60,350 nucleotides of DNA from Acutalibacteraceae bacterium (GTDB lineage: Bacteria; Bacillota; Clostridia; Oscillospirales; Acutalibacteraceae), in contig JAZOXC010000082.1 of NCBI GenBank assembly GCA_045659535.1, forward strand, positions 1 to 60,350, read 5' to 3'. Shown here one piece after another: positions 905-32,013 of the stretch. Numbering within the stretch: the first letter of the stretch is position 1; each line of letters starts with the position of its first letter. The translations under genes and the position numbers were made by a program. The notes under the pieces were generated by a model. It ran no database searches. It was given only the letters and a program-made list of their open reading frames with translations, and was not told the origin of the DNA.

Positions 905-972
905 GCTTTGTGAAAAAGCCTTAAAACAGTCTAAAAACCATCAGTTTCTGCTCTTCTCCAAACTCGTGAAAT

Positions 973-1236: not shown

Positions 1237-1370
1237 CCACTTAAACGAGTTCCTCTGCCTTTTTTACCAGGCAAAGTAAAATTTTGCTATATTTTTCTCA
1301 AAAAAACCAAAAAAGGGGCATTTTTTGGGCAAAATGCAAGGGTCAGGACCAAATAGGTAAAGATTTAGTA

Positions 1371-1399
1371 GTGCATTTTTAACAAACTGCTATTATAAT
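1371..1399 (+). promoter_or_regulatory. Candidate sigma-A promoter for the long plus-strand operon
   Basis: GTGCAT(1371-1376), 17-nt spacer, TATAAT(1394-1399), about 35 nt upstream of the RBS and ATG at 1433. Confidence 0.35.
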
Positions 1400-1432
1400 A
1401 TATAAAAATATATTTTATCTTGGGGGATTATT

Positions 1433-2101: not shown

Positions 2102-2112
2102 GGGTGTAGTAA

Positions 2113-4243: not shown

Positions 4244-6466
4244 ATGAAAATTAAATCCATAATCAGCAGCATTTTATGTGTCGCTCTTTTGCTTTCCATG
4301 GTGCTAACGGTTGGGGCCGCCCCGACCGAGGGTGCCGCCGATACCTTCATTCTCGGCGAAACCACCTACGAAAAGGTTTCCGAAAACTCGCATAACGTTC
4401 TCTATATCGATAGAGAAACAGGAAACGTTGTTGTAAAAAATCTTGCCAGCGGAAATGTTTTCTGCTCGGCTCCTTCGGATGAGGTTAGCGATAAGAATTC
4501 GGTTGGTATCGAAAAAACAAGCATAAAATCGCCCCTCGTTATCGAATACATATATAGCGAGAAAGCAAATGCAACCGATATTTCGGGCCTCGAGAAAACC
4601 AATACCGTTGAGGAATGCAGCGAGGGTGATATCACCATCGAAAAAATTGAAAACGGTGTTAAGGTTACCTTCTCGATTGCTTGGCTTGGAGTAACCATCC
4701 CGGTTGAATATGTTTTGGATGGCGATCAGTTCAAGGCATCCATCCTCTATGATGAACTCGTTGAGGGCTCGGATATCCTCATCATCTATATCAAGCTTTT
4801 GCCCGGCTTCGGCGCAGCAAAAATGGATGATGAAGGCTATATAGTAGTGCCCGATGGAAGCGGCGCAGTCATCAACTTTAATAATGGCTCGGGTGTTTCC
4901 GAATATGTTGGAAATGTATATGGAACCGAGTTGAACCCGCTCACATATATAGATAAATATCGCGGCGAGAGAATTCATCTCCCGATTTTCGGAATCGTTA
5001 ATTCCGATCGCGCACTCCTTGGTGTTATAACCGAAGGCGATGATAGCGCAGCCATCTGTGCATATTCCGCAGCAGCCAAAAAATATGGCTATAACGCAGC
5101 CTCCGCCAAGGCTATATACCGCGCCAATTCTCCGGTTTCCATGTTCGGAACCTCTTGGGAGGGTCAGAACGTAAGCAACTGGTCGAAGGTTGCAGGTACC
5201 GGCAAGTTTACCGTTAGCTATTTCTTCCTCGGAGCCGAAAAAGCATCCTATCAGGGCATCGCTTCGGCATATCAGGAATACCTTGTTGCCGAGGGTGTTC
5301 TAAAGAAGAACCAAAATAAGCCCTCGCTTCATCTTGATGTTTACCATAGCATTGATAAAATAACCGCTGCGCTCGGCTTTAAGTATAACGAGCAGATATC
5401 GTTAACTACCTATGACGATGTTAAAAAGATTCTCGAGCAGCTCAAGTCCGCGGGTGTAAACGATGTTACCGCCGAGCTTATCGGTTGGGGTAATACAGGT
5501 GTTACCAATGATGAGCTTCCCTCGGGTGTTGATCATCTTTCAAATGTTGGCGGCGGAAAAGGCTTCTCGGGTCTTAAGACCTATGCGGCAGAATCGGGAG
5601 CAACCCTAATAGCAAACTCCGATTTCGTTTATGCAAGAGAAATAAGCAATTCCAATTCTATAAGAACCCATTTCAACAAGGTTATGTATAAATACTTGTA
5701 TCGCAATTCGGTTTATACCGAGCGCCGCGATACAGCCCGCCGAATAGCAACCGCCGATCGCTTCCAGTCTTCGGCTCTCGCATTCCTCGATTCCTATGCT
5801 TCGATGGAACTCGATGCTATCTCGATGGATACCCTTGGCGAATATTTCTATACTAACTTCACCAAGAAGGGTCTTCAGAATAAGCAGTACCTTGTTGGCA
5901 AGGTAAAGGAAACCTTGGCAGCCTATAAAGAAGCAGGCTATAAGATTTCTATTGCAGGCGCAAACGCATATACCTTTGCGTATGTTGATATCGTAACCGC
6001 AGCTCCGATCGGCTCCAGCTGCTACGAGATGTTCGATTATGATATCCCGCTTTATCAGCTTGTACTGCATGGTTATGTAACCGTTACAACCGAGTCGCTC
6101 CCGCAAACCATCGATGAGGAATTAACCTATCTTTGGGCGGTTTCGACCGGAACCGAGCCGATGTATAATACCATCGCCCAGGAAGCCAGCATACTCCAGG
6201 AAACAACCTACGACTACCTCTATAGCTCGACCTTTAATTGGTGGAAAGATGAGGCAGTAGAGAAATACACCGAGTATTCAAAACTTCTAAACCTTATCTA
6301 TGATAAAAAGATAGTTGGATATACCGAGGTATTACCCAATGTAGTAAAAACCGAGTATGAAAATGGCCCAACCGTGTTTGTTAACTATACCGACACTGAG
6401 GTAACTGTTGATGGACATAAGGTTCCCGCTAAAGGCTATGTGTGGTTTGGGGAGGATAACGAATGA
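4244..6466 (+). CDS. Secreted 740-aa protein of unknown function
   Basis: RBS AAAGGAGG and signal peptide ILCVALLLSMVLTVGAAP. The stop overlaps the next start (ATGA at 6463-6466). From memory, proteins in this genomic context are annotated DUF5696; I could not verify this. Confidence 0.7.
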   Translation: MKIKSIISSILCVALLLSMVLTVGAAPTEGAADTFILGETTYEKVSENSHNVLYIDRETGNVVVKNLASGNVFCSAPSDEVSDKNSVGIEKTSIKSPLVIEYIYSEKANATDISGLEKTNTVEECSEGDITIEKIENGVKVTFSIAWLGVTIPVEYVLDGDQFKASILYDELVEGSDILIIYIKLLPGFGAAKMDDEGYIVVPDGSGAVINFNNGSGVSEYVGNVYGTELNPLTYIDKYRGERIHLPIFGIVNSDRALLGVITEGDDSAAICAYSAAAKKYGYNAASAKAIYRANSPVSMFGTSWEGQNVSNWSKVAGTGKFTVSYFFLGAEKASYQGIASAYQEYLVAEGVLKKNQNKPSLHLDVYHSIDKITAALGFKYNEQISLTTYDDVKKILEQLKSAGVNDVTAELIGWGNTGVTNDELPSGVDHLSNVGGGKGFSGLKTYAAESGATLIANSDFVYAREISNSNSIRTHFNKVMYKYLYRNSVYTERRDTARRIATADRFQSSALAFLDSYASMELDAISMDTLGEYFYTNFTKKGLQNKQYLVGKVKETLAAYKEAGYKISIAGANAYTFAYVDIVTAAPIGSSCYEMFDYDIPLYQLVLHGYVTVTTESLPQTIDEELTYLWAVSTGTEPMYNTIAQEASILQETTYDYLYSSTFNWWKDEAVEKYTEYSKLLNLIYDKKIVGYTEVLPNVVKTEYENGPTVFVNYTDTEVTVDGHKVPAKGYVWFGEDNE

Positions 6467-7386
6467 AGATGAGAAAAAGCAAATTAAGTCTTGCAACCCG
6501 TGAATCGCTGAAGGGTCATATCTTCTTAATCCCCTTTTATATCGGACTTCTTGTTTTCTTTGCAGGTCCTCTTATTCAGTCGATTCAGTTTGCGTTCCAA
6601 AGCGTTAACCCGCAGGTTGGTTATTATGAGGTAACCAATGTTGGAGATTATAACTTCAACTACATATTCAATCAGGATGCAAACTTTAAAATCAACCTCA
6701 TAGAATCGCTCACAACCCTTGCTTGGAAGCTTCCCGTAATCTTTGTTTCCAGCCTTTTCTTTGCGATTCTCATAAACCGAAAATTCCATGGTAGAGTTTT
6801 TGTTCGTGCTGTATTCTTCCTTCCGGTTATCATAGCATCCGGCTTGGTTATGAATGTTATCCAGGGCGACCAAATCGCAGGTGCGGCTCTATCGGGAAGT
6901 TCGGTAGCGGGCGGGGAAATTTCGCAGAGTACCGCGCTATCGAATGTGCTTTCGGGAATTGGTCTTAGCGATGGCATCATCGGAACCATAACAACCATAA
7001 CCGACAGCATGTTCAGTACCATTTGGCAAACCGGCGTTCAAACTGTTATATTCCTCGCAGGTCTTCAGGGAATCCCCTCGAGCCTATATGAGGCTTCGGC
7101 GGTTGAGGGCGCTACCGCTTGGGAAGATTTTTGGAAGATAACCCTCCCGATGATACTTCCCATATCACTTGTTAACATTGTTTATACAATAGTTGACTTC
7201 CTTGTTAATACCGAAAACCCCGTTATGATTCAGGTTCTAAACGATACAAACAATGCTCGTTACGGAACCGCATCCGCAATGGCATGGTCGTATTTCTTGA
7301 TCATAGCGGTTATATTGGTGGTTATCATGCTCTTGTTTGGTAAGATAACTGCTGCAAGCACCGGCGGTAAGGAGGCGAAGAGATAA
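6463..7386 (+). CDS. Carbohydrate ABC transporter permease (MalF/LplB-like)
   Basis: Six predicted TM helices. Permease loop is LYEASAVEGATAWEDFWKITLPM. Translationally coupled to both neighbours. Confidence 0.85.
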   Translation: MKMRKSKLSLATRESLKGHIFLIPFYIGLLVFFAGPLIQSIQFAFQSVNPQVGYYEVTNVGDYNFNYIFNQDANFKINLIESLTTLAWKLPVIFVSSLFFAILINRKFHGRVFVRAVFFLPVIIASGLVMNVIQGDQIAGAALSGSSVAGGEISQSTALSNVLSGIGLSDGIIGTITTITDSMFSTIWQTGVQTVIFLAGLQGIPSSLYEASAVEGATAWEDFWKITLPMILPISLVNIVYTIVDFLVNTENPVMIQVLNDTNNARYGTASAMAWSYFLIIAVILVVIMLLFGKITAASTGGKEAKR

Positions 7387-7387
7387 T

Positions 7388-8350
7388 ATGAAATTTTTTA
7401 AAGCCTCTCAAAAGGTAAGTCCGATTGTGCTTAAGCGCCGTTCAACAGCCTTTGTTATAGGTGTTATAAGAGCACTGTTTATTATCGGTCTTTGCTACCT
7501 CTTCCTTTTCCCGGTTGTTTATATGATAGTAACCGCGCTTCAGGATCCTGCATTTGCAAACGATCCTTCATCCATCTGGATTCCCAAGAAATTTTCGCTT
7601 GTTGCGATAAAGGGAGCAATGAAAGCGCTCAATTTCTGGCCCTCGCTCGGAATGACCGCGAGAATCTCGATACTAAGTACTATAGCTTCGCTTTTCTCCT
7701 GCTCACTCGCGGGTTACGGACTTGCCAGATTCAAGCTTCCCGGCAAGAAAATAGTTATGGCGCTTCTGTTCTTAACTATTCTCGTTCCGCCTCAGCTGCT
7801 GCTTACCGCGCAGTATGTTAATTTCCGTTATTTCGATTTCGGTGGATTGCTTAGCATCTTCGGAGCCGATGTTTCGCTCCTTGATTCCGAGCTTTCGTTC
7901 GTGCTTCCCGCCATATTCGCAAACGGACTTCGCGGCGGATTATTCATCTTTATCTTTAAGCAGTTCTTCGAGGGTCTGCCAAAAGACCTTGAAGAAGCAG
8001 GAAAAATTGATGGTAGCGGAACCTTTAGAACCTATTTCAGCATTATGCTTCCGCTCGCAGTTCCCGCTTTTATAACCGTTTTGCTCTTCTCCTTTATCTG
8101 GCATTGGAACGATTACTACAGCGCCGCGGTTTATTTCACCGGCGATGTTCGTCCTTTGAATGTTATGCTAAAGGGATTGCAGTCGGCCCTTGAGCAGGGA
8201 ACTATCATCGCCAACGATGCAACGGCTATGGAAAGCCGAATGTATCTGCAGGCGGGCGCACTTTTAACTATTTTGCCACCTCTCGTTATTTACATTTTCA
8301 CGCAAAAATACTTTACCGAAGGCATCGAGCGTACCGGTATAGTAGGCTAA
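7388..8350 (+). CDS. Carbohydrate ABC transporter permease (MalG/LplC-like)
   Basis: EAA-type loop LEEAGKIDGSGTFRTYFSIMLPLAVP in a multipass membrane protein. Gap to the upstream permease is 1 nt. Confidence 0.85.
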   Translation: MKFFKASQKVSPIVLKRRSTAFVIGVIRALFIIGLCYLFLFPVVYMIVTALQDPAFANDPSSIWIPKKFSLVAIKGAMKALNFWPSLGMTARISILSTIASLFSCSLAGYGLARFKLPGKKIVMALLFLTILVPPQLLLTAQYVNFRYFDFGGLLSIFGADVSLLDSELSFVLPAIFANGLRGGLFIFIFKQFFEGLPKDLEEAGKIDGSGTFRTYFSIMLPLAVPAFITVLLFSFIWHWNDYYSAAVYFTGDVRPLNVMLKGLQSALEQGTIIANDATAMESRMYLQAGALLTILPPLVIYIFTQKYFTEGIERTGIVG

Positions 8351-12994: not shown

Positions 12995-15880
12995 ATGAAA
13001 AAATTCAGAAAAACAGCGGCTTATGTGTTATCGGCGCTGTTGGCTGTTCAGATTCTAAGCACCGTTTCGCTTGTTTCGGCAGAAGAAGTTAAAACCGAAA
13101 CAGTTCCGCAGGCGAGTGCAGAGGATATAGAGCAGCTCCTATCCTCGGATACATCGTATATCGATTTCTATTCCGCGGTTAAAGATACCAAAAGGCATTA
13201 CGGTTTTCTTTCGGCAACCGTAACCGCAACCGAAAATAAAGATGCAAAGGTAACTGCCGATGAAAAGGAAGGCTATATCCTTTCCGATGGGCGAAACCAA
13301 TGGATCGAATATAAAGTTTCGATTCCCGAAGATGCTCTTTATGGGATGAAGGTTACATATTATGCGCCAACCTCAGCAAGCGGCCGCAACATAGTTTTGT
13401 CGGTTGCTGTTGATGGAACTCTGCCGTATGAGAAGGCAAAAACCTTCTCGCTAACCCGAATTTGGAAAGATTCGGGCGAGATAAAGCAGGATGCAAACGG
13501 AAACGACCTCCGCCCCAAACAGGAAGAGGTTCCGCAATGGATTTCTGCAATGTTTATCAACGAGCAGGCGCTTTATGAAGAACCCTATATGCTCTATCTA
13601 ACCGCAGGAGAACATACTCTGCGAATTAGTATCGAGGAAGAGGAGGTTTATATAGGCGGCTTTAGCTTGGGTCTCGAACCTAAAGCCATGAGCTATGAAG
13701 ACTATATAAGCCAATATAGCGATAACGACCATGTAAGTGGCGATGCAGTAGTAATTCAGGCTGAAAAAGCCTATGAGAAGAGCGATTCAATGCTCTATTC
13801 AACCTATGATAGAACAACGGTTGATGTAACTCCCTATGACCCTGCATCAATGAAACTCAACACCATCGGCCAGTCCAACTGGGGACAAAACGGCCAATGG
13901 ATCAGCTGGCAGGTTCCGATCGAAACCGCAGGTCTCTATAAAATTGCATTCCATGCAAACCAAGACTTTAGCCAGTCGATCAACTCTTATCGAAAACTGC
14001 TTGTAAACGGCGAGCTGCCGTTTGCCGAGGCAGATAACATCAGCTTCCATTATGCAACCTCATGGTATATGAAAACACTCGGCGATGATAAACCGATGTA
14101 TGTATATCTCGAGCCGGGCGATGTTATAAGCCTTTCCTGTGTTCCGGGCGAGCTTTCGGGAGTTCTCCGAAACATTCAGCAAACAGTTTTAAACCTCAAT
14201 GCAATCTACCGCGATATCATAGCAATAACCAGCACAAGCCCCGACATTTATCAGGACTACAACCTTGATAAGAAAATACCGGGACTCGAGGATGCCCTCT
14301 ATGCCAACAAAGCGGTGCTGGATGAAACCTATGAAGAGGTTAAGCGAGTTCTCGGTGGTTCGGGCGGTAACGCTTCTACCATCGTTCAGGTAGCACAGAT
14401 ACTTGGCGACCTCGCTTATGACCCATATACAATCCCCGATAGATTATCAACCTTCAAATCCGAAATTGATAATCTCGCTTCCCTTATACTAACCCTCCAG
14501 AGCCAGCCGCTCGAGCTCGACTTTATCGCCTTTGTTCCAAAAGATACCGCGATACCGAGTGGAGAGGGAGGCTTCTTCGAAGGTCTTAAATACACCTTCA
14601 TGAAATTCTGCTACTCCTTCGTAACCGATTATAATAGCTTCTCGGGTGGAAGCGGAGATGCAAAGCAGATCAATGTTTGGGTATCAACCGGTCGTGACCA
14701 AATGCAGATACTCAACAACATGATAAGCGACTCATTCACCCAACAAACGGGTACAAATGTTAAACTGAGCCTTATCAATACAGGAATGACAATGATTCAG
14801 GCAACCCTCGCAGGAAAGGGACCCGATGTTGCCCTTATGGTTTCAAAGGATCTTCCCGTTAACCTTGCGATGCGTGGAGCCTTGATGGATCTGAGCGACT
14901 ATGATTTCAGTCAGCTCAAATCCGAAACTGCTGAATCAGCATGGACTTCGTTCTATTATAATGGTGGACTTTATGGTATCCCCGAGAGCGAAACCTTCCA
15001 AATGCTGTTCTACCGAACCGATATCTTCGAGGAGTTAGGTCTATCCGGACCGCCCGATACATGGGATGACTTCTATGATTATATGGAGATTATTCAAAAG
15101 AATAACTTCTCGGTAGGCGTTATGGAAATCGATGCTACAAACTATGGTGTATCGGCAGGTATCGATATTTTCTCGATGTTCCTCTATCAGCGAGGCGGCC
15201 GCTTCTATAACAGCGACCTAACCGCAACCATGTTTGATACCGAGGTTGCATACCAGGCCTTTAAGGAATGGGTAAACCTCTATGATGTTTACGGACTCGA
15301 TCGAAGCTTCAGCTTCTATAATGTGTTCAGAAGCGGCGAAATGCCGATGGCCATTCAGGGCTACGGAGCATACAACCAGCTAATGGCTGCAGCTCCCGAA
15401 ATAACCGGTCTTTGGGAATTTGCTCCCATTCCCGGAACTCTGCAGGCCGATGGAACAATCAACCGCAGTCAGAACTCGGGTGTTACCGCATCGGTAATCC
15501 TGCAGGCTGCTGCCGACCATGGCGTTGCCGATGAATGCGTTGAGTTTGTAAAATGGTGGACCTCGGCGGAGATTCAAACCCGCTATGGTAAAGAGCTCGA
15601 AGCTATCTTGGGCGTTGCCGCAAGATATGCGCCGGCAAACCATGTTGCTCTGCGCAACCTGGGTTGGACAAAGGCCGAGCTTGATGCTCTTATGGAGTCC
15701 TATGAATGGACAGTTAATATGGAGCAAATCCCGGGCAACTATTTAGTTTCCCGTTCCCTCACGAGTGCAGCGCGCGCAGCCATGAGCAACAAACAAACCA
15801 TAAGACGCGCACTACTACTCTACAATATAGATATAAACGAAGAAATCACGCGTAAGCGTGCCGAATTCGGCTTGGACTAA
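12995..15880 (+). CDS. Oversized extracellular solute-binding protein with an N-terminal CBM-like extension fused to a family-1 ABC SBP
   Basis: Signal peptide is VLSALLAVQILSTVSLVSA. Two CBM6/35-like segments (NQWIEYKVSIPEDALYGMKVTYYAP and NGQWISWQVPIETAGLYKIAFHAN) precede the SBP core from about residue 560 (INVWVSTGRDQMQILNNMISDSFTQQTGTNVKL...GKGPDVALMV). Confidence 0.75.
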   Translation: MKKFRKTAAYVLSALLAVQILSTVSLVSAEEVKTETVPQASAEDIEQLLSSDTSYIDFYSAVKDTKRHYGFLSATVTATENKDAKVTADEKEGYILSDGRNQWIEYKVSIPEDALYGMKVTYYAPTSASGRNIVLSVAVDGTLPYEKAKTFSLTRIWKDSGEIKQDANGNDLRPKQEEVPQWISAMFINEQALYEEPYMLYLTAGEHTLRISIEEEEVYIGGFSLGLEPKAMSYEDYISQYSDNDHVSGDAVVIQAEKAYEKSDSMLYSTYDRTTVDVTPYDPASMKLNTIGQSNWGQNGQWISWQVPIETAGLYKIAFHANQDFSQSINSYRKLLVNGELPFAEADNISFHYATSWYMKTLGDDKPMYVYLEPGDVISLSCVPGELSGVLRNIQQTVLNLNAIYRDIIAITSTSPDIYQDYNLDKKIPGLEDALYANKAVLDETYEEVKRVLGGSGGNASTIVQVAQILGDLAYDPYTIPDRLSTFKSEIDNLASLILTLQSQPLELDFIAFVPKDTAIPSGEGGFFEGLKYTFMKFCYSFVTDYNSFSGGSGDAKQINVWVSTGRDQMQILNNMISDSFTQQTGTNVKLSLINTGMTMIQATLAGKGPDVALMVSKDLPVNLAMRGALMDLSDYDFSQLKSETAESAWTSFYYNGGLYGIPESETFQMLFYRTDIFEELGLSGPPDTWDDFYDYMEIIQKNNFSVGVMEIDATNYGVSAGIDIFSMFLYQRGGRFYNSDLTATMFDTEVAYQAFKEWVNLYDVYGLDRSFSFYNVFRSGEMPMAIQGYGAYNQLMAAAPEITGLWEFAPIPGTLQADGTINRSQNSGVTASVILQAAADHGVADECVEFVKWWTSAEIQTRYGKELEAILGVAARYAPANHVALRNLGWTKAELDALMESYEWTVNMEQIPGNYLVSRSLTSAARAAMSNKQTIRRALLLYNIDINEEITRKRAEFGLD

Positions 15881-16818: not shown

Positions 16819-17721
16819 ATGTCAAGCAAAGTAGCAACACTTTGGGAACGCATTAAATTCGAGCGTCGTTCGCGCAAGAAGGTTATGCTATCTCGTTCCA
16901 AAGCAGGAAACTTCGGCGTATTCCTGTTTTTGCTCGGAATATCGATTTTCATGATTTTGCCGATGGTTTATTCGGTAGTTCAATCATTAAAACCGATCGA
17001 TGAGATTTTCGCATTCCCGCCCAGATTCTTCGTTCGGCATCCAACATTTGATAACTATAAACAGTTATTCAAACTGGCCGATAACCTCTGGGTTCCTTTC
17101 TCGCGATACCTATTTAACAGTATTGCAATATCAACCGTGGGAACATTGCTTTATCTTGTTATTGCAACCATGGCGGCATACCCGCTTGCAAAAGCCAAGA
17201 ATACAACAATGTATATCATCTCGCAGGCAATCGTTATGGCAATGCTGTTCCGTGGCGACACAACAGCGATTCCCCAGTATATTATCATCGCAAAGCTCGG
17301 TATGGTTGATACCTACTACGCGATGATACTTCCAACCCTGGCAAGCACAATGGGTGTATACCTCATTCGCCAGTTCATCGTTACCGCCATTCCGGACGAA
17401 ACCCTCGAAGCCGCCCGAATCGACGGTGCGGGAGAATATAAAATATTCTTCCGAATTGTTATTCCGAGTGTTAAACCCGCACTTCTGACCCTCGTTATCT
17501 TCACCTTCCAGACGATGTGGAACAGCACCGGAACACAGTACATCTTTAGCGAAGAACTAAAACAGCTTCCTAGCGTACTGTCTAGCATCTCGGCTGGAGG
17601 ACTTGCTCGTTCGGGCGCGTCCGCGGCAGTAAGCGTCGTAATGATGATACCGCCAATCGCCGTATTCCTTATCTCGCAAAGTTCTGTTATGGAAACAATG
17701 ACACATTCAGGTCTTAAATAA
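16819..17721 (+). CDS. Carbohydrate ABC transporter permease (MalG-like)
   Basis: EAA loop LEAARIDGAGEYKIFFRIVIPSVKP in a multipass membrane protein. Confidence 0.85.
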   Translation: MSSKVATLWERIKFERRSRKKVMLSRSKAGNFGVFLFLLGISIFMILPMVYSVVQSLKPIDEIFAFPPRFFVRHPTFDNYKQLFKLADNLWVPFSRYLFNSIAISTVGTLLYLVIATMAAYPLAKAKNTTMYIISQAIVMAMLFRGDTTAIPQYIIIAKLGMVDTYYAMILPTLASTMGVYLIRQFIVTAIPDETLEAARIDGAGEYKIFFRIVIPSVKPALLTLVIFTFQTMWNSTGTQYIFSEELKQLPSVLSSISAGGLARSGASAAVSVVMMIPPIAVFLISQSSVMETMTHSGLK

Positions 17722-17736
17722 GGAGGAAAAATTAGT

Positions 17737-17880
17737 ATGAAGAAATTTTACGAAGAACCCGAGTTAATAAAGTACAGACTCGAATCGGTTCAGAACATTG
17801 CCGATCTTTCTATCGGTGGCTCACTTGGTGATGGTGACGAGTGGGGCAACGAGGATGAAGATGGCGACTTAATTGATTAG
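17737..17880 (+). CDS. Small hyper-acidic protein (47 aa), unannotated family; paralog of 51811-51957
   Basis: AGGAGG(17721-17726), ATG 17737, TAG 17878-17880. Sequence is MKKFYEEPELIKYRLESVQNIADLSIGGSLGDGDEWGNEDEDGDLID. It is below the 60-aa ORF-track cutoff and ends 13 nt before the ATG of the 1,528-aa gene. It shares the N-terminal signature MK-x2-Y-[ED]-x-P-E-[LF]-x3-R with the second copy. Confidence 0.65.
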   Translation: MKKFYEEPELIKYRLESVQNIADLSIGGSLGDGDEWGNEDEDGDLID

Positions 17881-17893
17881 GGAGGAAAAAGAA

Positions 17894-20800
17894 ATGAAAA
17901 ACTTTAAAAAGCTTTCCGCGATTTTCCTCAGCGTTTTATTGCTCATCGGAGCAGTAATTGTCCCCTTAACCGTAACAACTGCAGTTGCAGCTGATGAAGT
18001 TGACTTTACTCAGTCGCTCATCTACGGACAGACAGCAACCCACAATAACATCACCAACCAGGACGGTATCTATTACGGCAGTAGTGATACCGCAACCATG
18101 AAGAAATCAACCGATGGTAATATAAGCACCAATATTGAGTTTTACGGCACTTCACAGGACGATAAACTCATTTGGATGATGAACAGCTATGCAAAGGTTG
18201 ACTCCTTCGAGCTTTGGGCTCATGAAGTTACCCATTATGACTTCAGCTTTAAGCTCTATATTTCGGACAATACCGATGACCTTTTCACCGATGAAAACTT
18301 AGTTTATACCCATGTCCGTGAAGAGGGCAACAGCAGCGGTGGCCACTATACTGCCAACGTTGCAATGCCCGATGGCAGCGATGTCTATGGTGCAGTAGTT
18401 GGTATGTATGTTTATGAAACCCATGCAACCAACCAGGGAATTAAAATCCGCGAGCTTGCTCTTTGGGGAACTCCCGCAGAGGATAATGTTGGCGACTTCT
18501 ACTATAGCCGCTGGGCGGTTAACCGCAATCTCGCAAACAATTCGGCAAAGAGCCTTATAAACGGCAAGCTTCCCTATACCGCCTATGTCGGAACTTCTAC
18601 CTCTACCGCAGGCGGTAGCGAATACGGCGCAACCTCCGGTCAACCTAAGTTTACCGCTTTGACCGATGGTAACTCTAACGGCGGACGCACCAATAAGACC
18701 GATGTTACAGGTGCTACCTATAATGGCGCAAGCAACGGCTGGTATCAGTTTACCTATCAGCTCGATTCGCTTACCAAGGTTACCGGTGCCGCAATCGGAA
18801 ACGGTTTCTTGGGCGATGACCGCGCTTGGGATTGGGAGCTCTATGTAGGCAGCGACCCTGCAAGCCTTTATAGCGGCGCTCCTGTTGCAAGCGGCCGTTC
18901 TTATCCCAGCGTTGATGGCGTTGTTCAGGACGGTTATATGTTCGGTATGGAGGTTCTCCTTGCCAACAATGCAAATGCAGTAGGAACCTATGTCGGCTTC
19001 AAGCTCATCCCCAACAACTCTCTCGGAGATTCCTGCATTCGCATCGCTGAACTTCAGGTTTACGGCGAGGGTAACCAGTCGGGAACAACCGAGCGTTGGG
19101 CAAAGACTACCGACGTTACTACCGACAGCCTTCTCTATAATCGCGGCCTCGACAATGCTTTTGTCGATAAAAATATTGCAGGTGGAAATTGGACCTTTGC
19201 CAATACTACCGATACCTACGTTTATCTTTCCAATGGCACCCGTTTAACCGACGGAACAACCTCTACCGCTCACGCCGATGTTTCCAACGGCACAAACGGT
19301 AAGCTCATTTGGGCACTTGAAGAGACAACCGATATCGAAAGTTTTGTTCTTTATAACCATTCGGGTCAGTATTATAATGCTGCTTACGAGGTTTACGCTT
19401 CCGATAGTCTTGACACCCTCTTTAATCTTGAAAATCAGATTTATACCTTCACGTTCAAGGATGAAAACGGCAACATCGACCCCAACAAAATGCAGTATGG
19501 CGGTAAGTATGTTGAGTTCTATGGCGATGATATAAAGAGCGCAAACTATATAGCAGTTTGGCTTCGCGAGGGTCTCCGCGCTTCCAAGAACGCCGATGGA
19601 ACCTTCAACTCGCTCGATACCGGCTTCCGTATTTCCGAAATTGCATTCTATGGAACTAAGTCGGAAAATGCTAAGAAAAACGGTAAAATTATTACTTATG
19701 TCAGAACAAACGAGTCCAACTATGCTCAGGTTGCTACAAAGCTTGGCGAAGAAGGCTTCACCTATGAAAACAACCTTCTCAAGTCCTCGAATGTTACAGT
19801 TAAGAATGCAAGCGGAACTACCGTTAATATCAACACCGATAAGCTTACAAACGGTGTTACCACCAGCGAAGAATTCTATGGCTCGTATCTCAACTATGAA
19901 TTTACCTACTTCCTCGGCGGCCTGACTACGGTCGAAGGCTTTATGCATATCCGCAACAATATCGGATTCTGCGAAGGCTATCAGGTATATGTTGGTAATT
20001 CTATGGATTCCCTCTATACCGAGGAAAACCTCGTTCTCGATATGAGCGATAATCTCCATATGCTTCCCCGCGGAAGAACAACCGCTATTAAGTTCGGCAC
20101 CCCGAAAACCGGTATGTATCTTGGTATTAAGTGGGTAAATGTTAATTCCTATTCCGAAGTTCGTATCGCCGAAATCGCTGCTTGGGGAACAACCGAGGAC
20201 CTCGGCTACGACCTCGCTCCCAACATCGGCGCTATGGCAAATGCTGATTCTGCAAAGAAGAATGCATCCGATGTAAACCTTCTCCGTGGCCTCAAGGCTA
20301 CAACCGGTTACTATGGTTCTACCCATTCTTCTACCGGTCTTTACTGTATAGACGGTATTACCGATGGCGTTGCAAACCTCCATTACGACTTCAACTACAG
20401 CGCCGAAGCAAATGGTCCCGGAAGCGAACTCTTATATGACCTTGGTTATGTTTCGACCATCAATGAGTTTGCTCTTTGGATGACCTGTGCCGGTCGTCAG
20501 TATTCCTATGAGGTTTATATGGGCGAGAGCTATGATACTATGTTTGAAGCTCCCGTTGCAGTTTGGGATTATAATATCGTTGCCAATTCCCTCGGCCAGA
20601 AGTTCACCTTCGATGAGCCGAAGCAGGCACGCTACATTGCAATCCGCCTTACCGATACCCGCGTTGACAAGGACTCCTATCGTTTGACCGAGGTTGCCGC
20701 ATTCGGAACTCTCGGCGGAGCAGATAGCGAATTCGTTGAGATAAACGGCGCAGAAATCAGCTCCGATGGCAAGCATATTTCCTACAACGCAACCTACACC

Positions 20801-22471
20801 TTCCCCGCAGGCATTATGACCGAGTCTGTTGTTGATATCGGAACTGTTGTCTACCCGACAACCGCTCTTGCAGGCGCAGAACTCACCCTTAATACCGCAG
20901 GCGCATCCATCGCATCGGCCGCAACCGATGAGGTTATGGATATAATCAATGCATATGATGCAGCAGGCTATAAGGCAGTCCGCACCAACAGCACCTTCTC
21001 GGGCGCTGATTCGGTAGGTGCTACCACTAAGCTTACCGCTCGTGCATATATAACCCTTTCCAATGGCAAAACCTATTACTCCGCACCCTATAACTACTCT
21101 GTAACTCAGGTTAAGCGTCTTGCAGCTAAGAAGTATTTGAGCATCTTTGCAAACGATACCGATTACATTGCAAACAAGGGCTACAACGGAGATATCGATA
21201 CTGTTTGGTCCGACCTTACTGCTGCTAAGGCAGAGGTTAGCTCCGACAAGAACGCAATGCTCTCCGCTTCCAATGCTTGGATAAACAATGTTCTCGAAAC
21301 CTATGGATTCGAGAAGGAGTGGATTGACAACGGTGTTGCAACTCTTGGCGACTCCAGCCGCCTTGCAGCCGTTATTCGCAAATTGATGCGTGGCGAAAAT
21401 ATAACCCTCGTTCAGATTGGCGGCTCCATTACCGAAGGCTACTACGCAACCGATAAACATGGCGAAGCCGAACTCGTTGCTGATTACCTTAATGCTGTAT
21501 TCCCGGGTCAGGTTACCTTCAAGAATGCAGGTATCGCCGCAACAGGTGCAACCCTCGGTGCATACCGTCTCGAAGAGGATGTTTTAAGCGCTGATCCCGA
21601 CCTCGTAATCGTTGAATTTGCTATCAATGATGCTCGCGATGACGTTCAGGCTATGGGCGCTTATGAGGATATCATTCGTCGACTCCTCGGCGAGGATATC
21701 GCAGTAATCGCACTCCATAATCTCCAGTATTACAGCAACTCCATCTTCGCAGAAGGCTCTGCAACAAGCCATCAGAACATTGGTTTTGTTTATGGTCTCC
21801 CGCAGGTCCGTGCATTTAGTGCATACTACGGAACTTCCGTATATGGTCAGGGCGAAGGCAAGAACTACAATGCAGGCGATGCAACACATCCGAACGACCA
21901 GGGCCACAATGCCGTAGCAGTTCTTGTTGCAAACCTTATCAACTATGTAATGGCAGATATCGAAAATCAGCCGACCGAGTCCTATGCTATTCCTACCTAT
22001 GCAATGACTACTTACGGCGGATATATAAATGATAATGCTACTATCTATAAGTCGCAGGATATCGAGGCAGGCAGTAATCCCGTTACTATCACCGGCGCAG
22101 CATATTCTGCCACCGGCAACCAGGTTGGTCATGATGATATCCGTGGCAACCACGACTATGCTATCTACACCATTGAAAGCGGCGCTTCCGCTACTATCAC
22201 AGTAAGCAACGCTACCGATATCCTCCCGCTTGTTGCTGCAACATCTTCAGGCAGCAAGGCTGCAACCTATGTTGTAACCGATGCTGATGGCAATGTTCTC
22301 AGCGAGGGAACTTTCTCGGCTCAGTATACCGGCTCTCTTACGGTAGAAAACGCACGAATCATCGAAGGCACTCGCTTCTATAATGGCGAAGCAGCAGATA
22401 TCACAATTACTATTACCGCAGTAAGCGGTAAGGTTCAGCTCGCAGGCGTTCTCGCTTGTGTAGCAAAGTAA
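17894..22471 (+). CDS. Secreted multi-discoidin (F5/8 type C-like x5) protein with a C-terminal SGNH/GDSL-type esterase domain
   Basis: ATG 17894 follows GGAGG (the ORF-track TTG at 17873 overlaps the small ORF). Signal peptide is LSAIFLSVLLLIGAVIVPLTVTTAVA. Five hallmark motifs are FKLYISDNTDDLF, WELYVGSDPASLY, YEVYASDSLDTLF, YQVYVGNSMDSLY and YEVYMGESYDTMF. SGNH blocks are QIGGSITEG, NAGIAATG, EFAINDA and DATHPNDQGH (about nt 21390-21960). Confidence 0.85.
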   Translation: MKNFKKLSAIFLSVLLLIGAVIVPLTVTTAVAADEVDFTQSLIYGQTATHNNITNQDGIYYGSSDTATMKKSTDGNISTNIEFYGTSQDDKLIWMMNSYAKVDSFELWAHEVTHYDFSFKLYISDNTDDLFTDENLVYTHVREEGNSSGGHYTANVAMPDGSDVYGAVVGMYVYETHATNQGIKIRELALWGTPAEDNVGDFYYSRWAVNRNLANNSAKSLINGKLPYTAYVGTSTSTAGGSEYGATSGQPKFTALTDGNSNGGRTNKTDVTGATYNGASNGWYQFTYQLDSLTKVTGAAIGNGFLGDDRAWDWELYVGSDPASLYSGAPVASGRSYPSVDGVVQDGYMFGMEVLLANNANAVGTYVGFKLIPNNSLGDSCIRIAELQVYGEGNQSGTTERWAKTTDVTTDSLLYNRGLDNAFVDKNIAGGNWTFANTTDTYVYLSNGTRLTDGTTSTAHADVSNGTNGKLIWALEETTDIESFVLYNHSGQYYNAAYEVYASDSLDTLFNLENQIYTFTFKDENGNIDPNKMQYGGKYVEFYGDDIKSANYIAVWLREGLRASKNADGTFNSLDTGFRISEIAFYGTKSENAKKNGKIITYVRTNESNYAQVATKLGEEGFTYENNLLKSSNVTVKNASGTTVNINTDKLTNGVTTSEEFYGSYLNYEFTYFLGGLTTVEGFMHIRNNIGFCEGYQVYVGNSMDSLYTEENLVLDMSDNLHMLPRGRTTAIKFGTPKTGMYLGIKWVNVNSYSEVRIAEIAAWGTTEDLGYDLAPNIGAMANADSAKKNASDVNLLRGLKATTGYYGSTHSSTGLYCIDGITDGVANLHYDFNYSAEANGPGSELLYDLGYVSTINEFALWMTCAGRQYSYEVYMGESYDTMFEAPVAVWDYNIVANSLGQKFTFDEPKQARYIAIRLTDTRVDKDSYRLTEVAAFGTLGGADSEFVEINGAEISSDGKHISYNATYTFPAGIMTESVVDIGTVVYPTTALAGAELTLNTAGASIASAATDEVMDIINAYDAAGYKAVRTNSTFSGADSVGATTKLTARAYITLSNGKTYYSAPYNYSVTQVKRLAAKKYLSIFANDTDYIANKGYNGDIDTVWSDLTAAKAEVSSDKNAMLSASNAWINNVLETYGFEKEWIDNGVATLGDSSRLAAVIRKLMRGENITLVQIGGSITEGYYATDKHGEAELVADYLNAVFPGQVTFKNAGIAATGATLGAYRLEEDVLSADPDLVIVEFAINDARDDVQAMGAYEDIIRRLLGEDIAVIALHNLQYYSNSIFAEGSATSHQNIGFVYGLPQVRAFSAYYGTSVYGQGEGKNYNAGDATHPNDQGHNAVAVLVANLINYVMADIENQPTESYAIPTYAMTTYGGYINDNATIYKSQDIEAGSNPVTITGAAYSATGNQVGHDDIRGNHDYAIYTIESGASATITVSNATDILPLVAATSSGSKAATYVVTDADGNVLSEGTFSAQYTGSLTVENARIIEGTRFYNGEAADITITITAVSGKVQLAGVLACVAK

Positions 22472-22586: not shown

Positions 22587-25500
22587 ATGAAAAACTTTCG
22601 TTTTTCTAATCGACTGATCGCAGTTGCCGTATCGCTGCTCATCCTCGTTGGTGCGCTGCTCGTTCCGATAACTGCCTTCGCATCAACTCCGATTGCTGAT
22701 ACTCCTATCACATCGCTTGATGATGCAAATGCCTATGCGCAGCAGTCGATAATAAAGGATAAAAAGCCGGTAATGGTCTATGGCGATTACTATGGCGACA
22801 ATTCTTTTGCAGGCCTCGTTGACTGTCGTACCGATGGTGTAGTAAAACTTACCGACGGAACCGTTGGAACCGGAAGCGGCCATGCCGACTTCTCCTATGC
22901 CAACAATGTTAACGGCGACTCTGCAAACATAGATAAAAACATCTATGTTGCCTGGGAAACGGGCGGAAAAGCAACCGTAACAGGTTTTATGCTCTTCAAC
23001 CGCGCAACACATACTTCCGCAGGCGATCATTCCGAATATGAGGTATATGTAGGCAATAGCCTTGATACCCTCTTTAATGCAGGTAATAAGGTTCATACAT
23101 ATACCGCTCCTGAAAATGCCGCATATAATGGTGTTTACAATGCTTTCAAAAACGAAAATGTAAAGACCGGCTATTATGTTGGCGTTAAGCTCCTTGATGC
23201 ATGTTCGCATACTGATACTGCAAACTGCGGCGCAGTCTGCACATATCACCGTATTTCCGAGATTTCCTTCCTCGGAACCGTTGATGCAAATGATAAGCCC
23301 GACTATGTTCTCAACAGCAACTTCTTCTATTCGGGATATAGTCCCTCAAAGGCTTATGATACCGATGGCGATTACACCTATGCAAACAGCCTTGTAAATA
23401 CTTCTAATGTTGTTATCGATGATACCGTTGTATTCTCGGGCAACGATGTTGTTAATAAGGCATATATCAATGATGGTAATGTTAGCAACCAGGTTGAATA
23501 TCGCAGTGCAACCAATAAAACCATAACCTTCACCCTCGGAACCGTTTATCAGATCAATAGATTCTCCTATTGGCATCAGCAGAACTCCGAGCGTAAGGAT
23601 AGCTATGAAATCTATGTTGGCAACGACCTTGCCAACCTCTATACCGCAGGCAACAAGGTGTTTACCTGGAATGCCGCAACCTCGCTCCGCTCCATGCGTC
23701 AGGTTGTAACCTTTAATAAAAAGGTTAGCGGTAAGTATGTTGGTATTAAGTTTACCGATGCCGACTACTTTGATAAAAACGGCGGCTCTTCTCGTATGGC
23801 AGAGTTTGCTGTTTGGGGCGAAACCGATACCGCTCCCTATATCGAAAAGAGCAACACTACCGAGGTTGGTCAGTATGTTGACACCTATAAGGATAGCAAC
23901 CTAATCGCAGGTAAGAGCTATATCGCAGGCTTCAATGGTGCTAAGATCAACAACAACGGTAATGCAGTTCGCTTAACCGATAATACTGTTTCTACCGCTC
24001 ATGCCGACATCTATGATGCCGATAATGCTCATCTCGTATGGCAGTTCGATTATTATTCGAATGTTGACCATCTCTTGGTTTATAACAGAACCAACTATGC
24101 AGATGAGGCTTCGTATAAGTTCTATGTAGGTAGCGACTTTAATACCCTGTTCTCGGATGATAACCTTGTTTATACCCATGTTGCAGATGCTTCGAACCCG
24201 ATGCGCGCACAGGTTATAAACATCCCGGGCGGCGCAAAGGGCTATTTCCTCGGTATGATTATTACCGATGCAGGCGGCCCTGATACCTGCGCTCGTATCA
24301 GCGAAATCGCAGCTTATGGTGCAGCCGATGAGCAGAAGCCCGCTTCCTATATGCTCAATACATATTTCAATAGCAAGAAATATGATACCGATGGCGATTA
24401 CACCTATCAGAACAGCCTTGTTGCAGGTATGACTCCCAATATCCCCAGCGCAGGCTCTAATAAGGATAAGTTAACCGATGGTGCTTTCGCAAATGAGGTT
24501 GAACTTTGGAGCGTTGGAACTGCCGGCAAGGAGACCGTAACCTTTACTCTTCCTGCTGCCGCAACCATTGATGCTATTCAGTATTGGCATAGTAAATCGG
24601 AATATGTAACAAACCTCCGTGATAACTATGAAATATATGTAAGCAATAGCCTCGACAACCTCTATGATGAGAGCAATCGAGTATTCGAATGGGTTAATAC
24701 CGCAAACCCCCAGAGCTATTCTCAGAGAATAGTTTTCACCGCTCAGAGCAAGCCCTATGGTAAGTATGTTGGTATCAAATATACCGACGGTGCATCGGGC
24801 AGCGATACAGACAACAGCGCTCGCGTTCATGAGTTTGCTGTTTGGGGCGAACTCGAAGAGTTAACCGCAACCCTAACCCCAATTACCGATGATATTATTG
24901 CTAATAAGGCTCCCATGAACCTTATTACAAGCAAATTACCGACCTATTGGTATAAAGATACCGATGGAACCATCGCAGGTCAAACTGCAAACTTCCTCCC
25001 GAGCGGAAGCTCCGGTGCTGAAAAGTTAACCGATAACTCGCTCTCGGGTCATACCGATGTATATGGCGGCGTTGGAACACGCATTGTTTATAAGCTCAAC
25101 GGCTATTCGCAGATCGATGCCTTTACCGCTGTTGCTCGCAATGCAGGCGAAGAGGTAAGCTATAAGATTTATGTTGCTGATTCTCTCGATGAGATGTTCG
25201 ATAGCGCAAATCTTGTTTATACCCATACCGCCGATAATACCGTTAAGGGCAAACTTGTTGAGCTTTTAGTTCCCGCAAAGGGCTATTATGTAGCAATCGA
25301 GTTTACCGCTATGGGTTCCTCTACCGATTATCCGCGTATTCAGGAACTCGCATTCTATGGCTCCGCACTTTCGGGCGGCGCAGAGGATGCAATTGATCAG
25401 ATTAATGCAAACTACTATTATCGTGCAGGAAGCCCCTTCGTTTATAGCGATGCCTTCCCGTATGAAACAAACCGCATTAAGGGTCTTAGCAAAACCGCAG

Positions 25501-28500
25501 GAACCGTTATCTTAGGTTCTGCAGGCAATAAAATTGATACCGGTTGGGGCGATGGCTCTTTCGATGAAATCGAGCTTTGGAACGCCGCAACCGCAGGCAA
25601 GGATACCGTAACCTTCGTTCTCGCAAAGAGAACCAATGTTACCGCACTTCAGTATTGGTCTTCTAACAGAACTGCCAATGCAATGCGCGATAGCTATGAT
25701 GTTTACGTATCCGATGACCTTTCCAGCCTCTATGATGCAGGAAATAAGGTATTCTCTTGGGATGCAACCCTTTGCGCTCCTTCCGTTTCGCAGAGAGTAA
25801 CCTTTAAGACCGGTAAAGAACCGATAGGTAAGTATGTTGGTATTAAATATACCGATCCCTATATCGGCGATGCAACCGGCGGCGCTCGCGCAGGCGAGTT
25901 CGCTGTTTGGGGAACCGATGCTCCCGCAGAAAACAGCATCAGCTACACCTTAACCATCGATGATGCAGCAAGCATGCACGCATCGAGCCTTATCGCAGGC
26001 AGATTCCCCTCGACAACCAATGCAGGCTCTGCAAACTGGAAAGAGGGCATAACCGATGGTTCTGCACAGCCTTTCTCGGGCAACACCTCTTGGCATGACA
26101 TTTACAATAAAAACGGCGCCGTAGGCACCGATGTAAACCTCACCTATTCGCTCGAATATCAGAGCATGATTCAGGGTATTGCAATTTGGGAGACCCATCC
26201 CTCGCTTAAGAACGGCTTTGATGTCTATGTTGGCAGCGAGTCGGGCGATGCTCTCTTCTCGGCAGCAAATAAGGTTGCCAGCTGGAGTGCAGCAGCCAAC
26301 CCGACTGCAAAATCTGTTTACATCCAGTTAGCCGATGAGCATCAGAAGGAAGGCCGCTATGTTGGTATTAAGTTTACCGATCATACAGGCAATACCTCTG
26401 TTCGCGTAGCCGAGCTTCAGGTTTATGGTTATGCAACCAGCGATGATAACTCGGGAACCGATACCGCTCTCGGAAACAGCGAAATTCCGAAGCTCCATGG
26501 AAGCAACCTCCTTGTAGGTCGCGTTCCGGATATGGGCGTTTTGGTTGGTAATAACCTAATTGGTCTTGCCGATGGTCTTTATAATAAGGAAGTTCAGATT
26601 TATGATGCAACCGTTAAGGGCGACACCATAACCTACGACCTTGGCTATCCAACCCTCATTCAGAAGGTTGGTACCTGGCATTCCAATGCAGATCGTCGCG
26701 TAAGCTATCAGATTTTCGTTGGCAATGACCCCGCAACCCTCTATGATGGCACCCCGATCTTTACCTGGGATGCTATGGGAAATACATCTCTTGGTCAGAT
26801 GTATACCTTAAGCTCCAATGCTAATGTAACCGCTCGTTATATCGGTTGGAAGATAACCGATGCCGACTCTTCGGGCGATGATGTTAACAACCATGCAAGA
26901 ATTGCTCGTTTCTATGAGCTTTATGTTGCAGGTATTCAGGATATGAACACCGTTGTTCATGAGCCGATTGAAAACCTCGATGGTTTCGATGGCGAGAACC
27001 TCCTTTCGGGTATCGTCCCCGAACTCGGCGGAACCGCTGTTGCTGCCGATGATGCTGCGGCAATAACCGATGGCATCATTGCTGCAGGAAACGGTGTAAC
27101 CGTTAAGGCAGGGGATAAGCTCGTCTTCAATGTTGGCCGCAGCGCAAACTTCCTCGAATACATCCTTTCGGCTGATAAGACCATTGGTCGCTATGCAATC
27201 TATGTTGCAAATGCGGAAGATGAACTCTTCCGTTCAACCAACTGTGTATATACAGTTATCAATACCGCAGATGTTTCCAAGATAACCAAGATAACCAATG
27301 CTGTTGAAGATAGATCCTTTGTTGGTATCTATATTATCGATCCTTCCTTCGATGATAGCACAACCAACGTTATCAACGAGTTTATCGTAACAGGAAGCCT
27401 CAACACCTATCTCACAACCTATCCGACCTACCCGAGCGCAGCAACCGATCTTTGCTATGGTAAGGATAACCTCCTCGATGGACTCACTCCTACCATTACC
27501 TATTTAGACGGAAGCAATATCCGCAACGGAAAGAGTAAGGCGAGCCCGGTATTCACCGGTGAGAGAGGCCAGAGCCTCGGCTGGTGGACCGATGATATCG
27601 TAGGTCCCAACAAGCATACCGATATCTACTTCTTCGATGCAGGTCATATAACCTATAACCTTGGAACCAAGAAGTATGATATGAGCGGCTTCGAGATCTA
27701 CTATCATAGAGAGCGCCCGATTATGGAATACGAAATTTATGTAAGTAACTCCGAATCGACCCTCTATAACCCCGAGAACTTAGTTATCCGCTATTATAAC
27801 GAAAACAATTCTTGGGCTCAGTCGTTCACCTTCGCAGATGGTGAGCATCCCGTTGGCAAGTTCATTGGAATCAAGATTCTCAACGCAAACGATCTTGATG
27901 ATTCCAACCCGCGTATCGCCGAAATCGTTCTCTTCGGTGAAGAGTATATTCCTCAGCCCACCAACCTCGGCTCTACCGCCGCAGTTAAGGGCTATATCGA
28001 GAAGAACGGCGTTAAGACCGAACTTAACCACGATGAGTTTACAACCGAGCAGAGAAAGAACTTCTTAAACGCAGACAACGAGGATCCGATCGTTATCGAT
28101 TCCAAGGGCGGAAAGCTCCATTTCGTTGCCGACCTTTGCGCACCCATGAACATCGATGAGGTTATCCTCGAGAATGTTGCAAATGCTGCAAAGCGCGTTG
28201 GTTCCTTCAAACTCTATGTAGCCGACTTCCCGGATGAAGTATGGCAGGATAGTGCCCTTGCATATACCTATACCCGCTCTAATGCAGATGGTCAGGTTGT
28301 AACCTTGCCGAAGGATATTAAGGGACGCTATATCCGTATCGAGATTACCGATAACGGAACCACAGACGGAACCTTCAATATCAACAACTTCCAGTTCATC
28401 GGCCTTGATGATCAGGCTCTCGATGTAACCAACCAGTTGTTCAATATTGGAACCTCCGCAATCTCGTTCTATGGACAGAGCAACAAAACCTATGATTATG

Positions 28501-32003: not shown

Positions 32004-32013
32004 GAGAATCGAT

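Follow-up and report, generated by a model that had tools for sequence, protein, structure and literature searches.

What does a 47-amino-acid (aa) acidic peptide do in front of a giant surface-protein gene, and why does the same arrangement return on the opposite strand of the same contig? The question is raised by contig JAZOXC010000082.1 of an Acutalibacteraceae bacterium, whose analysed stretch of 60,350 nucleotides (nt) is called the window here. It carries two small open reading frames (ORFs), ORF1 and ORF2, each directly before a gene for a giant secreted protein. Both are genuine genes under purifying selection, each encodes a two-part peptide made of a leader and an acidic tail, and each is co-transcribed with its giant surface-protein gene and placed for translational coupling with it. 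As far as the literature was searched, a systematic pairing of such peptides with large secreted-protein genes is undescribed.

Two peptide genes and their orthologs

Peptide gene 1 (ORF1; 17737-17880, forward strand; ATG at 17737, TAG at 17878-17880) is an intact frame for the 47-aa product MKKFYEEPELIKYRLESVQNIADLSIGGSLGDGDEWGNEDEDGDLID, which has 14 acidic and 4 basic residues and no hydrophobic segment, and it is shorter than the 60-aa cut-off of the ORF list. It sits within an operon, just 3' of two ATP-binding cassette (ABC) permease genes, and its ribosome-binding site (RBS), AGGAGG at 17721-17726 on the forward strand, overlaps the TAA stop of the permease gene at 16819-17721. A 13-nt spacer leads from its stop to ATG 17894 of giant gene 1 and holds the RBS of that gene, GGAGG (17881-17885, forward strand), immediately 3' of the TAG. 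Peptide gene 2 (ORF2; 51957-51811, reverse strand) is likewise intact, encodes the 48-aa product MKLRYDAPEFELLRMLAAGDVCFGDSSFDVEGEFGDYETQPDEGGDDI behind an AGGAGG read directly at 51970-51965 on the same strand, and ends 18 nt before ATG 51792 of a 3,221-aa gene. A promoter-like TTGCTA-17-TATAAT lies 5' of it (52015-52043, reverse strand) and would make it the first cistron of the giant 2 operon; the site is a consensus match only, two such sites being found against 2.2 expected from shuffles of the region.

The initial annotation of this DNA had already described ORF1 with its position, AGGAGG, length, charges and 13-nt gap, and had denied it a hydrophobic helix or signal peptide; all of this is borne out, as is its report of a second ORF at 51811-51957 on the opposite strand before the other giant. 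The motifs that it read in both peptides, MK..Y[ED].PE[LF]...R[LM], E[WF]G[ND] and a G-D-x-I ending, are all present and align without gaps. The length that it gave for giant 1, 1,528 aa, had to be corrected to 1,525 aa counted from ATG 17894; a listed TTG start at 17873 overlaps ORF1 and is not a likely start. A degenerate DNA pattern for M-K-x2-Y-x2-P-[DE]-h...G-x-h-G-D finds ORF1 and ORF2 only in the window, against a mean of 0.00 in 100 shuffles, and the shared amino-acid motif occurs in no further complete small ORF in the six frames of the window. No Rfam family reached its gathering score there.

The two peptides and their close homologs are referred to as the narrow family. Word-indexed searches returned four close homologs for ORF1 and two for ORF2, a profile search then nine, and an exhaustive HMMER search of 1.84 billion (1.84e9) representatives 15 matches at E <= 1e-3; the best database match of ORF1 was 98 % identical and none was identical. 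Twelve of the 15 HMMER matches (12 clusters) are 40-50-aa peptides with the layout of ORF1 and ORF2, while the long repetitive proteins P0010, P0016 and P0019 were set aside as repeat artefacts, not relatives. P0010 is a 539-aa tandem-repeat protein with 10 copies of '…LLELELVQNISELSATS…', and it reaches 88 bits against the peptide profile via the central helix only.

Orthologs (43-98 % identity) are likewise placed ahead of the same giants, the ORF1 type in at least seven lineages and the ORF2 type in at least four. On contigs that are long enough, ORF1-type genes always lie between the second ABC permease and the ortholog of the ~1,530-aa GDSL giant (loci L001, L002, L010, L011, L017 and L181); ORF2-type genes always lie between an AT-rich upstream region and the ortholog of the Flg_new giant (L006-L009, L018, L024 and L027). 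Most narrow-family members retain this peptide-giant synteny. Three divergent members are found apart from giants, P0015 and P0020 with a terminator-like hairpin directly after them and P0018 with a hairpin followed by a 345-aa gene.

In every ortholog, down to 43 % identity, the reading frame is intact and has an RBS. The ratio of nonsynonymous to synonymous substitution rates (dN/dS), which the initial annotation had proposed as a check on a real, conserved small-protein family with conserved synteny, was calculated by the Nei-Gojobori method; it came to 0.05-0.44 wherever dS was unsaturated, and to 0.10-0.20 for ORF2 against its close orthologs. Values so far below 1 indicate purifying selection and, with the orthologs in the same position, uphold that proposal. 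The short length of the frames and the lack of an identical database match might suggest chance open frames without a product, but these homologs and dN/dS values have already refuted this, strong RBSs and the homologous small ORFs predicted by gene callers in many other assemblies speak against it as well, and the likelihood left to it is negligible. Across orthologs, identity ran at 70, 54, 43 and 47 % for ORF1, at 69, 47, 41 and 40 % for giant 1 and at 97, 94, 88 and 89 % for the adjacent permease; by these values, the identity of ORF1 tracks that of giant 1 and not that of the neighbouring permease.

An alignment of 19 narrow-family sequences (A3) and a positional profile delimit in ORF1 a leader-like half (aa 1-25; 17737-17811, forward strand) and a hyper-acidic Gly/Asp/Glu tail (aa 26-47; 17812-17877, forward strand) with a conserved aromatic residue, W36, and a G-D-x-I-D ending. 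Y5 and P8 are invariant in A3, and position 10 is L, F, M or I in all sequences. The leader reads M-K-K-x-Y-x-x-P-E-[L/F]; beyond it, Y+8, Y+10 and Y+16 are hydrophobic, and at about Y+20 there is a small residue or Ser. In the narrow family, Ser occupies Y+20 in 63 % of the sequences; in the wide family introduced below, 50-59 % have it at Y+19 or Y+20. AlphaFold2 predicts for ORF1 a helix at residues 9-27 (predicted local distance difference test, pLDDT, ~76) and a disordered tail (pLDDT 54-58), with no globular fold. Such a model fits a peptide that folds on a partner and does not indicate which partner. A double-glycine leader was considered and rejected, since the GG pair varies among family members, and a truncated EF-hand/dockerin-like Ca2+ loop in the tail (NEDEDGDLID) was likewise dropped as speculation only, its register varying among orthologs.

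A wide family of acidic peptides and its gene neighbours

Further relatives were gathered with degenerate DNA patterns in a genome collection and in metagenomes. A pattern spanning both window peptides gave 42 matches in the genome collection. Small ORFs of 38-65 aa that stand by themselves account for 21 of them, namely the ORF2 orthologs L024 and L027 and otherwise new relatives. The sources were metagenome-assembled genomes (MAGs) labelled Ruminococcus, Lachnospiraceae, Oscillospiraceae, Acutalibacteraceae, Bacilli, Prevotella, Bacteroidaceae and others. With only the N-terminal pattern M-K-K-x-Y-x-x-P-E-h-E-h, the metagenomes gave at least 120 loci, and 117 of the 122 matches listed are complete ORFs of 31-69 aa. 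The narrow-family profile recovers further tandem copies that were chosen by no pattern, in L038, L034 and L046, up to 74 aa long. L046 has three family peptide genes in a row (5002-6082) with a 125-aa lipoprotein gene between, and L038 and L034 have second copies; multi-copy arrays are typical of precursor peptides.

A hidden Markov model (HMM) built from N-terminal-pattern matches only and run against 2,600 small ORFs scored ORF1 at E = 1.5e-3 and ORF2 at E = 0.028, with no unrelated ORF ranked above them, and the divergent P0015, P0018 and P0020 at 1e-8 to 1e-10. An hhalign comparison of the wide with the narrow family gave 96.9 % and E = 1.8e-10. Positions fixed by neither pattern agree between the two, namely hydrophobic residues at Y+8, Y+10 and Y+16, Ala at Y+17 and Ser at Y+19/20, and in both the tail holds ~27-39 % Asp+Glu, 13-22 % Gly and <4 % Lys+Arg. 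The window peptides have all the features of the wide family, i.e., 31-74 aa, MKKxYxxPEh, the hydrophobic spacing, a small residue or Ser at Y+19/20 and the acidic Gly-rich tail with hardly any Lys or Arg. These comparisons make the narrow family one divergent branch within a very large peptide family of Firmicutes and Bacteroidales from the gut and rumen. The conserved family envisaged by the initial annotation stands; that it has far more than two copies and reaches beyond Clostridia and beyond giant neighbours had escaped notice there. In Pfam and NCBIfam, neither the two window peptides nor ten wide-family peptides have a family, the only sub-threshold matches being DUF7327 (E = 0.047) and the StsA sactipeptide leader (E = 0.08). 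A PDB profile search with A3 gave nothing meaningful, and no paper with characteristic strings of these peptides was found in the literature.

The neighbourhood of the peptide genes was assessed among the metagenome matches listed, where 103 dereplicated peptides had upstream sequence. A same-strand gene ends <=150 nt upstream in 92 of the 103 (89 %) and <=30 nt upstream in 55. Complete neighbours reach >=400 aa in 48 of 59 cases against a background of 35 %, and a crude test finds a signal-peptide-like N-terminus in 39 of 59 against a background of 43 %; where the N-terminus is readable, the large neighbour products are predicted to be mostly secreted. Their architectures are varied (Laminin_G_3/Big_2, peptidase M6, Flg_new, F5/8-C, LRR_5, GLUG). 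In the wide family, the peptide gene usually lies downstream of the large neighbour, or alone before a terminator. Both window genes lie on the same strand as the adjacent gene for a large secreted protein and upstream of it (gaps of 13 and 18 nt), a placement that recurs in the wide-family loci L077, L136 and L143.

Giant 1 (17894-22471, forward strand; 1,525 aa) has a signal peptide, F5/8-type-C-like modules and a GDSL/SGNH esterase, and giant 2 (42127-51792, reverse strand; 3,221 aa) a signal peptide, InlB-B/Flg_new repeats and a metallophosphatase. Common to both is module X (~130-160 aa, …ARAY…YS…SV[TN]QVKRL…; BLASTP E = 3e-8, hhalign 97.9 %). It spans ~160 aa in giant 1 (20714-21193, forward strand), with no Pfam family at gathering score, and aa 2118-2246 of giant 2 (45055-45441, reverse strand), where the copy was recognized by BLASTP and hhalign. 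By tblastn and jackhmmer, module X also occurs in a 349-aa secreted protein (L046, L040; Acutalibacteraceae and Oscillospiraceae MAGs), encoded directly before three family peptides. Sixteen Firmicutes-type neighbours of wide-family peptides have a homologous C-terminal end of ~120 aa, termed domain A. Module X and domain A are probably related, as hhalign gave 82 % and E = 1e-5 between them, and module-X proteins are the next-best matches of the domain A HMM. By jackhmmer, module X was not found among peptide-gene neighbours in general, and the domain A link comes from the profile-profile comparison only; a structure prediction of module X from a two-sequence alignment reached a pLDDT of only 32.

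Many neighbours in Prevotella/Bacteroidaceae-like loci end in …Y[ND]LxG[QR]RVxxPxKGLYIVNGKKVIIK. These C-termini may be sorting domains like those of the type IX secretion system (T9SS), a label that Pfam did not confirm. At L066, L073, L081, L082, L087, L089, L091, L097, L100 and ~20 other metagenome loci, MKKTYINPEMEVVKI…LLAGS peptides follow ~15-50 nt after large proteins ending …GLYIVNGKKVIIK; the flanks examined at these loci hold no kinase-like gene and no gene for a recognition element (RRE) of RiPPs, peptides that the ribosome makes and enzymes then modify. At L061, L064 and L125, secreted proteins of 288-308 aa are encoded right after the peptide gene, between it and kinase-like and exporter genes; they combine leucine-rich repeats of the BspA type with two dockerin-like, Ca-binding repeats at the C-terminus (…GDVNLDGKIDINDVTLLQ…).

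Leader motif, maturation genes and competing explanations

Discrete PqqD-type RREs of lasso peptides and of linear polyphosphorylated peptides (LPPs; LppA), the latter described by Popov et al. (Nat Commun 2026, PMC13381572), bind a [Y/W]xxPx[L/V/I/F/A] leader motif (PMC13381572). The YxxPx[L/V/I/F/A] form of this motif is found at the N-terminus of all 19 A3 sequences. LPPs have the leader consensus YxxPxVLxHQxIxFETxxS, a phospho-acceptor Ser three residues past the cleavage site, at Y+18, and a gene set of a discrete RRE, an SpI-like leader peptidase, an HprK-like kinase, a nucleoside triphosphate (NTP) transferase plus an exporter resembling MsbA (PMC13381572). At L038, two tandem family peptides are followed by NTP_transf_5, a 237-aa P-loop protein, PqqD, a small peptidase and an ABC exporter; L096 and L123 have the full gene set of the same kind, in which the SpI-like leader peptidase is of the S24/S26 type and the exporter MsbA-like, and in these three Clostridia loci the family relatives are the sole candidate substrates of the LPP-like clusters. 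The SpI peptidases and RREs of the three loci are homologous to the published ones of LPPs (phmmer 1e-5 to 1e-11), and the SpI-like peptidase of L096 matches Peptidase_S24. Among the metagenome matches listed, a P-loop kinase-like gene stands near the peptide at 20 of 117 loci, with ~7 distinct peptide types and often together with an exporter, and at loci with this gene set, genes for secreted proteins intervene between the peptide gene and those of the enzymes. At L175 (contig Ga0310690-type; oriented coordinates 907-3508), a Cys/Lys-rich peptide with a same-type MKKNYTKPEFEV leader is flanked on one side by a PqqD + radical-SAM/SPASM pair and on the other by a P-loop kinase-like gene, a context in which the same leader type appears to serve a different modification chemistry.

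The reading that we favour, with chances a little short of even, is that ORF1 and ORF2 encode RRE-dependent precursor-type peptides that are matured in trans and whose expression is tied to the neighbouring giant surface protein. The YxxPE[L/F] segment would add itself as a strand to an RRE whose gene lies at another place in the genome, modification would take place close to where leader and core meet, with the conserved Ser as the probable site, and after removal of the leader the acidic core would be exported. Entries of Supplementary Data 1 of PMC13381572 include 'LPP precursor elsewhere in the genome', which provides a precedent for trans-encoded precursors. Owing to co-transcription and the placement for coupling, the peptide would be made in step with the giant; once exported, it might act at the surface structure of the giant, possibly, to speculate, by binding module X.

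Several observations weigh against this proposal. The 60-kb window holds no RRE, SpI-like peptidase, kinase-like, nucleotidyltransferase or MsbA-like exporter gene, nor do the 16-20-kb stretches around the orthologs, and most wide-family loci, including all those with a Bacteroidales-style neighbour, have no maturation gene in the flanking DNA examined. An HMM of nine published LPP precursors finds neither window peptide at E <= 10, the A3 HMM reaches the best published LPP precursor only at E = 0.032, hhalign gives 16.5 %, and the window peptides do not match the extended LPP consensus beyond the 10-residue motif. Ser at Y+20 is incomplete in the narrow family and is shifted to 'DSS' in ORF2. 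The label 'kinase' is based on the P-loop SADSGVGKST, on position and on the homology of the proteins from locus to locus; the P-loop protein was not confirmed as HprK-like by Pfam or by searching PDB sequences.

The comparison with LPP precursors is accordingly mixed. Both are short peptides with a YxxPx[hydrophobic] leader, which in LPPs is bound by the discrete PqqD-type RRE, and a variable, Gly-rich and often acidic core; many of the sequences here also have a Ser near the presumed leader/core junction, and the relatives at L038, L096 and L123 are clustered with a homologous RRE and SpI-like peptidase, NTP_transf_5, a P-loop protein and an exporter. In contrast, the window peptides lack the VLxHQxIxFET segment, the window lacks maturation genes and the tail is hyper-acidic; the gene is fixed directly before a giant secreted-protein gene, whereas published LPP clusters lie in capsule loci. 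The hosts here belong to the Clostridia, their MAGs being labelled Acutalibacteraceae or Clostridia; the LPP host species taken from the table in PMC13381572, 15 in number, are all Bacillales. The initial annotation had offered three roles, and of these a secreted or processed peptide is the best supported, by the RRE-binding YxxPx[L/F] and by the relatives in clusters with PqqD, SpI-like peptidase and exporter.

The main rival to a matured precursor is an unmodified small acidic partner of the neighbouring secreted protein. It might serve as a holdase in the cytoplasm, as a cofactor that prevents aggregation or aids export, or as a regulator, and YxxPEh would then add a strand or helix to a module X or domain A protein and not to an RRE. 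We consider it possible but doubtful, and the two explanations are not mutually exclusive. The tight same-strand adjacency (92/103 and 55/103 at the two distances), the excess of neighbours of >=400 aa (48/59), domain A in 16 Firmicutes-type neighbours with its probable relation to module X, the parallel identities of ORF1 and giant 1, and the lack of maturation enzymes at most loci all agree with an unmodified partner. However, Sec exports the neighbours as unfolded chains, and a signal peptide is absent from the peptide, so that the two could meet only before export unless the peptide had an exporter of its own. The neighbours also differ greatly in architecture (LRR_5, Big_2, peptidase M6, F5/8-C, GLUG), no peptide gene accompanies the third giant of the window (22587-29666), several members of the narrow family are found on their own (L014, L015), and domain A is linked to module X by one profile-profile comparison only. 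The role of cofactor or chaperone put forward by the initial annotation may hold, with some support from the domain common to neighbouring proteins. It is improbable that the ORF is a cis-acting upstream cistron of which only the translation matters, setting the translation of the giant by coupling or by arrest or attenuation of the SecM, MifM or MgtL type. As with SecM, MifM, VemP and the acidic or proline-rich leader MgtL, a small ORF lies directly upstream of an exported-protein gene and is translationally linked to it; the stop is 13 or 18 nt before the giant ATG with an RBS in the spacer, ORF2 is the first cistron after the promoter-like site, and runs of acidic residues can destabilise translating ribosomes. 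Unlike those systems, the window peptides have no signal peptide or membrane segment with which to sense secretion, no C-terminal arrest motif and no RNA switch, the junction RNAs of ORF1 and ORF2 being no more structured than shuffles (z = +1.66 and 0.04), with no stable structure to sequester the downstream RBS. Purifying selection acts on the amino-acid sequence along the whole length, the family is defined by its N-terminal motif, and in the wide family the peptide gene is mostly found after its large neighbour or before a terminator, all of which disfavours this second suggestion of the initial annotation.

A lasso-peptide precursor, with the leader MKKFYEEPEL..., a core starting at Gly27 or Gly28 and an Asp/Glu 7-9 residues on to close the ring, is very unlikely. 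The leader motif is present, rumen Ruminococcus lasso precursors begin with MTYNKPSFEK... (PMC7533575), and a Gly with D/E at core positions 7-9 can be found. Firmicutes lasso precursors (paeninodin-like; Ruminococcus/Butyrivibrio LasA, PMC7533575) resemble the window peptides in [Y/W]xxPx[L/F] and in their ~40-50 aa, and they often have PqqD, HPr-kinase-like and nucleotidyltransferase genes nearby. But Pfam scans of the ORFs at 68-51792 revealed no Asn-synthetase-like cyclase or transglutaminase-like B2 peptidase, the ORFs at 52267-60214 being housekeeping genes by synteny with L006, and in the clusters that contain relatives there is an SpI peptidase but no cyclase. There is no conserved Thr at -2 and no conserved ring position, the GG pair varies across A3, D/E at positions 7-9 is trivial in a peptide with so many acidic residues, and the core is disordered and acidic, not compact. 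A likeness to double-glycine-leader peptides (class II bacteriocins, GG-Bacteroidales peptides) is seen in ORF1, a small, exported-type peptide with a short leader and then GG (…LSIGG|S…); in these peptides, however, the hydrophobic residues follow the -4/-7/-12/-15 rule, which the spacing here does not fit, and no C39-peptidase ABC transporter lies nearby, the exporters of the relatives being of the MsbA type with 530-640 aa.

A bolder reading, which we hold to be unlikely as a whole, is an undescribed system spanning two phyla in which leader-bearing acidic peptides are dedicated partners of surface proteins in gut and rumen Firmicutes and Bacteroidales. Each peptide would be encoded beside 'its' surface protein and co-diverge with it, and in some lineages RRE, peptidase, kinase-like and exporter genes of the LPP type would serve its maturation. 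Its target outside the cell would be a conserved module of that protein, in Firmicutes module X or domain A and in Bacteroidales the …GLYIVNGKKVIIK C-terminal domain, possibly in anchoring, cation-dependent assembly or masking. If true, this would give the LPP class, which lacks a known function, a biological role and would define a new kind of peptide-surface-protein pair; the link to surface-protein neighbours offers a testable lead, namely that the peptides may work together with cell-surface proteins that capture polysaccharides or mediate adhesion. Searches for RRE-dependent precursors are usually confined to the surroundings of the enzymes; judging by the window genes, precursors may lie dispersed next to their functional partners as well. 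With a family model, many such small genes could be annotated; the N-terminal pattern alone gave at least 120 metagenome loci.

Other genes of the window

The third giant gene (22587-29666, forward strand; 2,359 aa) starts 115 nt after giant 1 and encodes F5/8-type-C domains, ending in a membrane segment and a poly-Lys tail (…LLVKNNKKKKKN); it has no module X. The permease pair before ORF1 is preceded by an 853-aa protein without a family match and by an unusually long 961-aa protein (12995-15880, forward strand), in which similarity to MalE/GanS-like solute-binding proteins is confined to residues ~557-940. A second permease pair (6463-8350) lies beside DUF5696 and Yip1/NHL/TPR proteins. At 31260-33861 (forward strand), a gene for a metallo-beta-lactamase-fold protein with weak, sub-threshold similarity to the anti-Pycsar protein Apyc1 overlaps the start of the gene for an ADP-ribosylglycohydrolase fused to an NPCBM-associated domain.

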